Below, piece after piece: positions 796 to 2,350 of a DNA stretch of 8,661 nt. This DNA comes from a virus (lineage: Duplodnaviria; Heunggongvirae; Uroviricota; Caudoviricetes), in the IMG/VR virus record IMGVR_UViG_2713897161_000004; one strand, given 5' to 3'. Position 1 is the first letter of the stretch, and every line of letters begins with the position of its first letter. Made by a program: the position numbers and the translations under genes. The notes under the pieces were generated by a model. It was given only the letters and a program-made list of their open reading frames with translations. It had not been told where the DNA came from and ran no database searches.

Positions 796-1011
796 ATGAA
801 ATCCATGGATAAGTTAACAACGGGCATCGCCTACAGCACCTCTGCAGGCAGTGCTGGCTACTGGTTTTTACAGTTGCTCGATAAAGTCACGCCCTCACAG
901 TGGGCGGCAATAGGTGTATTGGGTAGTCTGGTATTTGGCATGCTGACGTATCTGACAAATCTTTATTTCAAGATTAAAGAAGACAGGCGTAAGGCTGCGA
1001 GAGGAGAGTAA
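796..1011 (+). CDS. Phage holin, class II pinholin of the phage 21 S type (S21/EssD/EssQ-like), 71 aa, with dual-start motif
   Basis: Tail of ORF 178..1011: [71 protein letters not shown]. Two transmembrane segments: a Gly/Ala/Ser-rich SAR-like first segment and a hydrophobic second. Met1-Lys-Ser-Met4 dual start (antiholin/holin). RBS GGAGGTGAGG at 784-793. The part of the track ORF upstream of 796 is antisense to tnp26 and not coding. Confidence 0.85.
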
Positions 1012-1015
1012 TCCA

Positions 1016-1327
1016 ATGACTCAAGACTATGAACTGGTTGTGAAAGGAGTCCGTAATTTTGAGAATAAAGTTACGGTAACTGTAGCCTTACAGGACAAAG
1101 AACGCTTTGACGGTGAAATTTTTGGCCTGGATGTCGCCATGGACCGTGTTGAAGGAGCTGTGCTGGAGTTTTATGAGGCAGCAGCCAGAATGAGCGTCCG
1201 GCAAGTCTTCCTGGAAGTAGCAGAAAAATTGTCAGAAAAAGTTGAGTCTTATCTGCAGCATCAGTACTCCTTTAAGATTGAAAATCCTGCCAATAAGCAC
1301 GAGCGTCCTCATCATAAATATCTATGA
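1016..1327 (+). CDS. ydfR: YdfR-like (DUF1327-type) conserved prophage protein of unknown function, 103 aa, sitting between holin and endolysin
   Basis: ORF 1016..1327, RBS GAGGAGAG at about 1000-1007, no predicted transmembrane segment, acidic. Stop TGA (1325-1327) overlaps the endolysin ATG (1324-1326) as ATGA. Length and position match my recollection of Qin-prophage ydfR; sequence identity not verified. Confidence 0.6.
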   Translation: MTQDYELVVKGVRNFENKVTVTVALQDKERFDGEIFGLDVAMDRVEGAVLEFYEAAARMSVRQVFLEVAEKLSEKVESYLQHQYSFKIENPANKHERPHHKYL

Positions 1328-1856
1328 ACACAAAAATCAGATACGGCCTGTCGGCTGCCGTTCTGGCGCTGATTGGTGCTGGCGCATCTGCTCCTCAGAT
1401 ACTTGACCAGTTTCTGGACGAAAAAGAAGGTAACCACACAATGGCATACCGCGATGGTTCTGGCATATGGACCATCTGTCGGGGTGCCACAGTGGTGGAT
1501 GGAAAACCGTTTTTCCCAATATGAAACTGTCGAAGGAAAAATGCGACCAGGTCAACGCCATTGAGCGTGATAAGGCGCTGGCATGGGTGGAGCGCAATAT
1601 AAAAGTTCCACTGACCGAGCCACAGAAAGCCGGTATCGCGTCATTCTGTCCCTATAACATTGGCCCTGGTAAGTGTTTTCCGTCGACGTTTTATAAGCGG
1701 CTTAATGCCGGTGATCGTAAAGGCGCATGCGAGGCGATTCGCTGGTGGATAAAGGACGGTGGACGTGATTGCCGCATTCGTTCAAATAATTGTTACGGTC
1801 AGGTTATTCGTCGTGACCAGGAGAGTGCATTAACCTGCTGGGGGATAGAACAGTGA
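1324..1856 (+). pseudogene. SAR endolysin (T4-lysozyme-like, glycoside hydrolase family 24; R21/RrrQ type) disrupted by a frameshift near 1503-1509
   Basis: Two ORFs in different frames: 1324..1524 (MNTKIRYGLSAAVLALIGAGASAPQ...EGNHTMAYRDGSGIWTICRGATVVDGKPFFPI*) and 1467..1856 (...[117 protein letters not shown]). The N-terminal fragment has a Gly/Ala-rich SAR segment and an intact E-x8-D-x5-T catalytic triad. One extra base at 1503-1509 would give a single 177-codon frame. Confidence 0.8.
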
Positions 1857-2350
1857 ATCAGATATTCACGGTGATTTTGCTCGTGTTGGTAGGATTTGTC
1901 GTAGGTAATGTCTGGAGCGACAGAGGATGGCAAAAAAAATGGGCGGAGCGTGATGCTGCCGAATTATCTCAAGAGGTAAATGTCCAATTTGCTGCTCGAA
2001 TAATTGAACAGGGGCGAAGTATATCCCGTGATGAGGCTGTTAAAGATGCACAACAGAAAGCCGCTGAAATTTCTGCCAGGGCTGCTGATCTGTCTGATAG
2101 TGTTAACCAGCTGCGTGCCGAAGCAACAAAATATGCCATACGCCTTGACGCAGCGCAGCATACCGCAAATCTTGCCGCTGCCGTCAGAGGCAAAACAACC
2201 AAAGCCGCCGAAGGAATGCTCACCAACATGCTCGGAGATATTGCAGCAGAAGCTCAGCTTTATGCTGAAATTGCTGACAAACGCTACATCGCAGGAGTGA
2301 CTTGTCAACGGATTTATGAATCTTTAAGAGATAAAAAATATCAGATGTAG
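1853..2350 (+). CDS. Rz-like inner-membrane spanin (i-spanin), 165 aa, GTG start
   Basis: ORF 1853..2350: N-terminal transmembrane segment ([18 protein letters not shown]) followed by a long charged, Ala/Gln-rich and probably coiled-coil periplasmic region. GTG start overlaps the endolysin stop as GTGA (1853-1856); SD GGGGGA at 1841-1846. Confidence 0.75.
2046..2300 (+). CDS. Rz1-like outer-membrane lipoprotein spanin (o-spanin), embedded in the +1 frame of Rz
   Basis: ORF 2004..2300 lies entirely inside Rz. From the ATG at 2046: [23 protein letters not shown]|[42 protein letters not shown]..., a signal peptide with lipobox L-T-S-C and a proline-rich mature part with C-terminal-region cysteines. 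SD GAGG at 2033-2036. Start could also be the ATG at 2031. Confidence 0.65.

Follow-up and report, generated by a model that had tools for sequence, protein, structure and literature searches.

A probably decayed lysis cassette of a Qin-type cryptic lambdoid Escherichia coli prophage, bordered by IS26

Positions 796 to 2350 of an 8,661-nucleotide stretch of DNA (the whole of which was analyzed and is called the window below) had been read from the sequence as an intact, translationally coupled lysis cassette of the phage 21 type, with an additional gene between the holin and the endolysin. Does this locus encode a working lysis system? Based on homology searches, genome comparisons and annotation, it is very probably the lysis cassette of a Qin-type cryptic lambdoid E. 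coli prophage in a decayed state. The present copy is, in all likelihood, broken through gene decay in a defective prophage and does not represent a new system. Its endolysin is a frameshifted pseudogene and an IS26 element ends 27 bp ahead of the holin start codon, which contradicts the picture of an intact coupled cassette.

Gene content and relatives of the cassette

The open reading frames on the plus strand, taken from the listing and from direct reading, were 796-1011, 1016-1327, 1324-1524, an ORF in a different frame that ends at 1854-1856, 1853-2350, and 2031/2046-2300. The first two and the last two of these were present as the original prediction had them, and its family assignments (phage 21-type pinholin, YdfR/DUF1327, SAR-type GH24 lysozyme, and Rz with an embedded Rz1) were upheld by HMM, hydropathy and lipobox tests. 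The features are listed in Table 1.

Table 1. Features of the lysis cassette and its IS26 border (positions in the window)
Feature	Position	Strand	Basis or remark
IS26, partial (window begins inside element)	1..768	-	PF13610, 100% identity to annotated IS26
IS26 transposase gene	ORF 1-723, canonical ATG at 705	-	Points away from cassette
Native holin leader, 27 nt left after IS26 insertion	769..795	+	Sequence and ET881 upstream comparison
essQ/essD-type class II holin (phage 21 S family pinholin), 71 aa	796..1011	+	PF04971, phrog_9876, phrog_20, hydropathy
ydfR, DUF1327 protein, 103 aa	1016..1327	+	PF07041, 97.1% identity to K-12 YdfR
rrrQ, SAR-type GH24 lysozyme, predicted pseudogene	1324..1856	+	PF00959 split over two frames; repaired product = K-12 RrrQ
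rrrQ N-terminal fragment, 66 aa	1324-1524	+	Holds putative SAR segment and catalytic E35-x8-D44-x5-T50
Frameshift site: A4 where intact alleles have A5	1503..1506	+	Alignment with ET881 (A4) and 13C1079T (A5)
rzpQ, Rz-type inner-membrane spanin (DUF2514), 165 aa, GTG start	1853..2350	+	PF10721, phrog_312
rzoQ, Rz1-type outer-membrane lipoprotein spanin, 84 aa	2046..2300	+	Lipobox, phrog_11621, K-12 annotation

The holin matched PF04971 ("Bacteriophage P21 holin S") at E = 2.3e-34 (score 117.6 bits, cutoff 26, over profile positions 1-63 of 64), as well as the two "holin" families phrog_9876 and phrog_20. It begins with MKSM, as had been noted, with ATG codons at 796 (Met1) and 805 (Met4); this is the dual-start motif Met1-Lys-x-Met4, from which antiholin and holin forms are predicted. 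TMD1 (residues 9-28) is weakly hydrophobic, with a mean KD of 0.6 and 55% G/A/S/T, TMD2 (residues 35-56) has a mean KD of 1.25, and nine of the 15 residues of the C-terminal tail are charged. A Shine-Dalgarno sequence, GGAGGTGAGG, was identified ahead of the gene at 784-793. The small stem at 772-788, considered as a regulatory RNA hairpin over this site, was no better than shuffled sequence (z = 0.76) and was discarded.

The product of rzpQ matched PF10721 (DUF2514) at 3.6e-38 and phrog_312 ("Rz-like spanin") at 4.3e-58, while among other Pfam families none scored save for a sub-threshold match to HAUS6_N. It has a TMD at residues 3-21 (mean KD 2.2); the rest of the protein is hydrophilic (mean KD -0.56), with 43 charged residues. 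Its proposed GTG start agrees with both the PGAP and the K-12 annotations. Gene rzoQ lies wholly within rzpQ in the +1 frame and has an alternative upstream ATG at 2031; its product has a hydrophobic signal segment ending in the lipobox LTSC (Cys codon at 2112-2114), and the mature protein is proline-rich (9 Pro in 62 aa). RzoQ was matched by phrog_11621 ("Rz-like spanin") at 2.6e-8 and by no Pfam family, and the K-12 annotation places rzoQ at equivalent coordinates. NCBIfam gave no family match for the holin, YdfR, Rz or Rz1.

Judged by its sequence, the cassette is orthologous to essQ-ydfR-rrrQ-rzpQ/rzoQ of the K-12 prophage Qin (b1556-b1553 and b4689), which it resembles in gene order and in its 4-nt overlaps. 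Protein identities to K-12 were 91.5% for EssQ, 97.1% for YdfR, 100% for the repaired RrrQ, 89.7% for RzpQ, 95.2% for RzoQ and 100% for CspI. The chromosomal neighbourhood (cspI, ynfQ, ynfN, gnsB, ydfI) also matches that of Qin, both in the downstream order cspI-ynfQ-ynfN-gnsB and in the region next to ydfI. The module is already known and carries annotations both in the K-12 genome and in phage genome records; literature searches for essQ, rrrQ and rzpQ returned mostly unrelated acronyms. The chromosomes of ET881 and SW071610 matched positions 769-8661 of the window with 100% identity.

Three differences from K-12 Qin were found. The K-12 copy is without the rrrQ frameshift, it has ynfU and cspB upstream of essQ where the present copy has IS26, and its right-hand prophage deletion differs from that of the present copy, in which a truncated terminase gene is joined to a tail fragment and ydfI is truncated. 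In the annotation, the truncated terminase gene is followed by a tail-protein (tail-fibre) fragment and then by the truncated ydfI, and the integrase of the ET881 prophage is partial. Because of the partial integrase (in ET881), the truncated terminase, the tail fragment and the truncated ydfI, the surrounding prophage is called defective.

Among complete E. coli genomes, 2,098 of 5,426 (~39%) hold at least 80% of the four-gene segment. Phage records mEp460_ev081, HannyBb, PhiR42_1, Tritos and 2H10 also carry it, with DNA identities of up to 98.7% across all 1,555 bp. The order holin, YdfR-family gene, lysozyme and Rz-like spanin is shared by these five records and by mEp460 and BP-4795, and in mEp460 a gene for an anti-termination protein Q-like product lies upstream of the cassette. 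In some lambdoid phage records the C-terminus of YdfR differs, or R and Rz are separated by additional genes (ant).

The cassette was also compared with that of phage 21 (S21-R21-Rz21/Rz1-21), the model for a pinholin paired with a SAR endolysin. The present cassette shares with it the Pfam family of the holin and the MKSM dual start, an N-terminal G/A/S-rich SAR-like segment, the E-x8-D-x5-T triad and an embedded spanin pair. It differs in that the lysozyme and the 3hde chain are only distant relatives (E 2e-16), the Rz protein belongs to DUF2514, ydfR is inserted between holin and lysozyme, and the present copy is judged non-functional. To our knowledge, the phage 21 cassette has no ydfR in this position.

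The disrupted lysozyme gene

A single SAR endolysin ORF had been proposed, and this did not hold. Because 1324-1856 comprises 533 nt, a length not divisible by three, RrrQ is not encoded by one ORF. Frame 1 ends at a premature TGA at 1522-1524 as a consequence of a 1-nt deletion, the remainder of the lysozyme domain being encoded in a different frame, which runs to a stop at 1854-1856. The PF00959 match was split accordingly, frame 1 covering profile positions 2-25 (17.9 bits, short of the cutoff of 22.3) and the other frame positions 27-125 (58.2 bits). Alignment of 1440-1580 revealed GGAAAACC in the window and in ET881 versus GGAAAAACC in 13C1079T, and when one A was re-inserted a protein of 177 aa was obtained which is 100% identical to K-12 RrrQ. 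The identical ET881 allele is labelled "lysozyme, frameshifted" by NCBI PGAP, that is, as a pseudogene.

The truncated product has 61 native residues. It keeps the putative SAR segment and the catalytic triad E35, D44 and T50, all of which are encoded upstream of the frameshift, and loses about two thirds of the fold. Residues 7-27 (YGLSAAVLALIGAGASAPQIL) have a mean KD of 1.43, 52% G/A/S/T and no charged residue, and this N-terminal segment aligns with that of PDB 3hde, the alignment beginning at residue 9. Intact RrrQ matched PDB 3hde, 3hdf and 4zpu (RrrD) at ~1e-16; we take 3hde and 3hdf to be the phage 21 endolysin R. The lysozyme gene of the window is thus a predicted pseudogene of a SAR endolysin family member, and not a working member.

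The frequency of the allele was determined with an 81-nt probe across the site. A4 was found in two to three of 1,792 E. coli records and ~1,789 of the 1,792 were intact, as were the phage records, all four that matched the probe carrying A5, unlike the present copy. The three assemblies with A4 (the window, ET881 and SW071610) all belong to one lineage.

Could the missing A at 1503-1506 be a homopolymer sequencing or assembly error, with the cassette being in fact intact and functional? The difference is of one base within an A-run, the allele is very rare, and the remaining lysozyme sequence is 100% identical to the K-12 protein, with no further decay, all of which would be expected of such an error. 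However, a run of four to five bases is short for systematic homopolymer error, and two further complete RefSeq genomes, one of frog origin (China) and one from wastewater, also have A4, albeit within the same lineage. Even with an intact lysozyme, IS26 would still part the cassette from the upstream prophage DNA. An error of this kind is considered quite unlikely.

Production of the lysozyme by programmed ribosomal frameshifting at the A-run was also considered, as the site is A-rich and slippery-looking (GGAAAACC). A +1 shift would be needed, but no stimulatory element was evident, PGAP calls the allele a pseudogene, and nearly all E. coli copies and all four matching phage copies are single-frame with A5. 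Since nearly all homologues are single-frame, this explanation was rejected as exceedingly improbable. A genuine deletion in a decaying gene is the preferred reading.

The deletion also bears on the gene overlaps, of which three had been claimed, along with a suggestion of translational coupling. Two of them were confirmed: the ydfR stop overlaps the lysozyme start (ATGA, 1324-1327), and the ancestral lysozyme stop overlaps the rzpQ GTG start (GTGA, 1853-1856). There is no third overlap, as a 4-nt gap separates the holin stop (1009-1011) from the ydfR start (1016). Because ribosomes on the rrrQ ORF halt at 1522-1524, 329 nt upstream of the Rz GTG, the coupling into Rz through GTGA would be broken, and we infer that in the present copy Rz is translated uncoupled from the lysozyme ORF.

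The joint action of pinholins, SAR endolysins and spanins has been described in published work on phage 21, P1 and lambda, and is applied here by homology (PF04971, PDB 3hde/3hdf). By analogy, a pinholin of the S21 family would build up in the inner membrane, where the weakly hydrophobic TMD1 would exit the bilayer and TMD2 would form small pinholes, leading to collapse of the membrane potential. This collapse would free the SAR-anchored lysozyme into the periplasm, where it would become active and cut the peptidoglycan, after which Rz in the inner membrane and the lipoprotein Rz1 in the outer membrane would, as a pair, disrupt the outer membrane. YdfR, encoded between holin and lysozyme, would be a small cytoplasmic protein. 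With the lysozyme truncated by the 1-nt deletion at 1503-1506, the lysozyme step would be lost in the present copy; holin and spanins remain, and if transcribed the cassette would cause at most membrane depolarisation and no lysozyme-dependent lysis.

IS26 and the upstream side

The first 768 bp of the window were 100% identical over their whole length to an "IS6-like element IS26 family transposase" found on thousands of plasmids, and the transposase matched PF13610 (DDE_Tnp_IS240) at 2.5e-48. At 755-768 lies the terminal inverted repeat TTTGCAACAGTGCC, a 14-bp sequence which we take to be the IS26 terminal repeat. The last base of the element is 768, leaving 27 bp to the holin ATG, and from 769 onward the window is identical to the ET881 chromosome. 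IS26 therefore separates the cassette from its native upstream prophage DNA, which in ET881 comprises a helix-turn-helix gene, two passenger genes and a Q antiterminator gene. None of the 5,426 complete E. coli genomes searched contained the junction of IS26 and holin.

The window includes a single end of IS26; this is compatible with the upstream prophage DNA having been either deleted or merely displaced. An 8-bp direct repeat of CCATCCGT at the other end of the element would point to a simple insertion, and its absence to an IS26-mediated deletion or rearrangement upstream.

A consensus scan of 650-2750, by which a weak or non-sigma-70 promoter, or read-through from outside the window, might be missed, revealed no sigma-70-like promoter at the IS26 junction or elsewhere in that region. 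A hybrid promoter formed with IS26 was rejected as well, as the TTGCAA at 756-761 is, by eye, without an acceptable -10 box at 15-18 bp. Transcription of the cassette from upstream has probably been lost.

YdfR and the standing of the locus

The original prediction had placed the YdfR-like gene outside the phage 21 paradigm. This is correct with respect to phage 21 itself, but otherwise the gene is common, occurring in K-12 Qin, in phage records and, with the segment, in the ~39% of complete E. coli genomes given above. In every cassette-type record inspected, a YdfR-family gene stands directly after a 71-aa holin and before the lysozyme, and annotations of K-12 Qin, mEp460, Stx phage BP-4795 and PhiR12_2 show the order holin-YdfR-lysozyme. 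The "extra" ydfR is a standard, though uncharacterised, part of this cassette layout.

YdfR matched PF07041 (DUF1327) over its whole profile (positions 1-93 of 93) at E = 3.7e-51, with 171.7 bits against a cutoff of 25. It is a soluble protein without a hydrophobic segment, no 15-aa window having a KD above 0.9. The family is small (228 clusters), with named members from Escherichia and Shigella only; the N-terminal ~74 residues are conserved and the C-termini are variable. An AlphaFold2 model from a 20-sequence alignment was of moderate confidence (mean pLDDT 64) and showed three strands and a helix over residues 1-72, with a disordered C-terminus. A sequence search of the PDB found no relative of YdfR (best E 0.68), and Foldseek of the model against the PDB and BFVD found no match at E <= 0.001. 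Assignment of a function based on fold was given up, as neither the PDB nor the Foldseek search gave a significant match.

Functional data on YdfR were found in a single publication (PMC13232886, 2026). [quoted passage not shown] Expression of ydfR was barely detectable in standard conditions and its overexpression had minor effects on the transcriptome, while upregulation of the cluster under cold stress and a match in an envelope-integrity screen are cited in the same paper (PMC13232886). YdfR might, by way of RNase E, adjust the stability of late mRNAs or the timing of lysis. That it is a real accessory factor of pinholin/SAR-endolysin cassettes, and not a passenger gene, is doubtful at present.

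These observations on YdfR also bear on whether the locus might be domesticated, the lethal lysozyme having been lost and the holin, ydfR and spanins kept for a non-lytic role, such as an envelope function in cold or stress or a modulation of RNase E by YdfR. Such a role would agree with the binding to RNase E, the co-purification with RNA, the cold-stress upregulation and the envelope screen (PMC13232886), with the position of the cassette beside the cold-shock genes cspI and ynfQ, and with the four other ORFs being intact and 769-8661 identical across the three assemblies. However, the frameshift is limited to one rare lineage and shows no evidence of being selected, the lysozyme is kept in nearly all other copies, and the almost absent expression of ydfR in standard conditions and the small effect of its overexpression on the transcriptome (PMC13232886) also speak against it. 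Domestication is considered very unlikely, and decay within a defective prophage is again the preferred explanation.

With a pseudogene for an endolysin, and with IS26 parting the operon from the prophage DNA upstream, this locus should be left out of any count of functional lysis modules, for instance in the prediction of prophage inducibility or in endolysin mining. The useful corrections are at the level of annotation, and consist of marking these same two features. In biological terms the cassette touches only on the role of YdfR. To this the present copy adds nothing unique, being another copy with the cassette around it broken, and an intact phage such as mEp460 or HannyBb would be better suited to its study.

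Truncated lysozyme and double-domain proteins

The 66-aa fragment (window 1324-1521) left by the 1-nt deletion in the lysozyme gene was found to match phrog_6543 (5e-36, residues 1-65), a PHROG of 71 positions labelled "unknown function". Judging by this match, the annotation of some phage genomes seems to list comparable N-terminal pieces of lysozyme as proteins in their own right.

Several predicted database proteins (P0029, P0053, P0058, P0086 and P0107) carry both the PF04971 holin domain and DUF1327, the YdfR family, and would be holin-YdfR fusions. In the window, the holin gene and ydfR lie in different frames, 4 nt apart. 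The predicted fusions may be frameshift or gene-calling artefacts.

IS26/prophage junction

The start codon of the holin gene is located 27 bp downstream of the junction between IS26 and the prophage. This exact junction was found in none of the 5,426 complete RefSeq E. coli genomes searched, and the remaining 7.9 kb of the window showed 100% identity with two of them. The window contains a single IS26 end, and the junction may have arisen either by simple insertion or by IS26-mediated deletion.

Genes downstream of the cassette

A match to the cspA thermoregulator (Rfam RF01766; 111 bits, E 2e-28) was identified at 2567-2972, spanning the long 5' leader of cspI and its coding region. As in the Qin cryptic prophage of E. 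coli K-12, ynfN and gnsB are present downstream of the cold-shock genes. In the right-hand part of the window (5323-8661), the structural genes of the prophage and ydfJ have been lost by deletion.

Features of the window (ET881, an E. coli strain)
Feature	Position	Basis
IS26 (junction 768/769; prophage DNA from 769)	1-768	
cspI, coding region	2714-2926	
ynfQ, second small cold-shock gene	~2937-3125	
ynfN, intact	3198-3428	offset from ET881 annotation
gnsB (GnsA/GnsB family), intact	3601-3774	offset from ET881 annotation
Phage terminase large subunit, truncated	~5323-6714	offset from ET881 annotation
Tail-protein fragment	~6707-7226	offset from ET881 annotation
Chromosomal ydfI, N-terminally truncated	~7327-8661	offset from ET881 annotation
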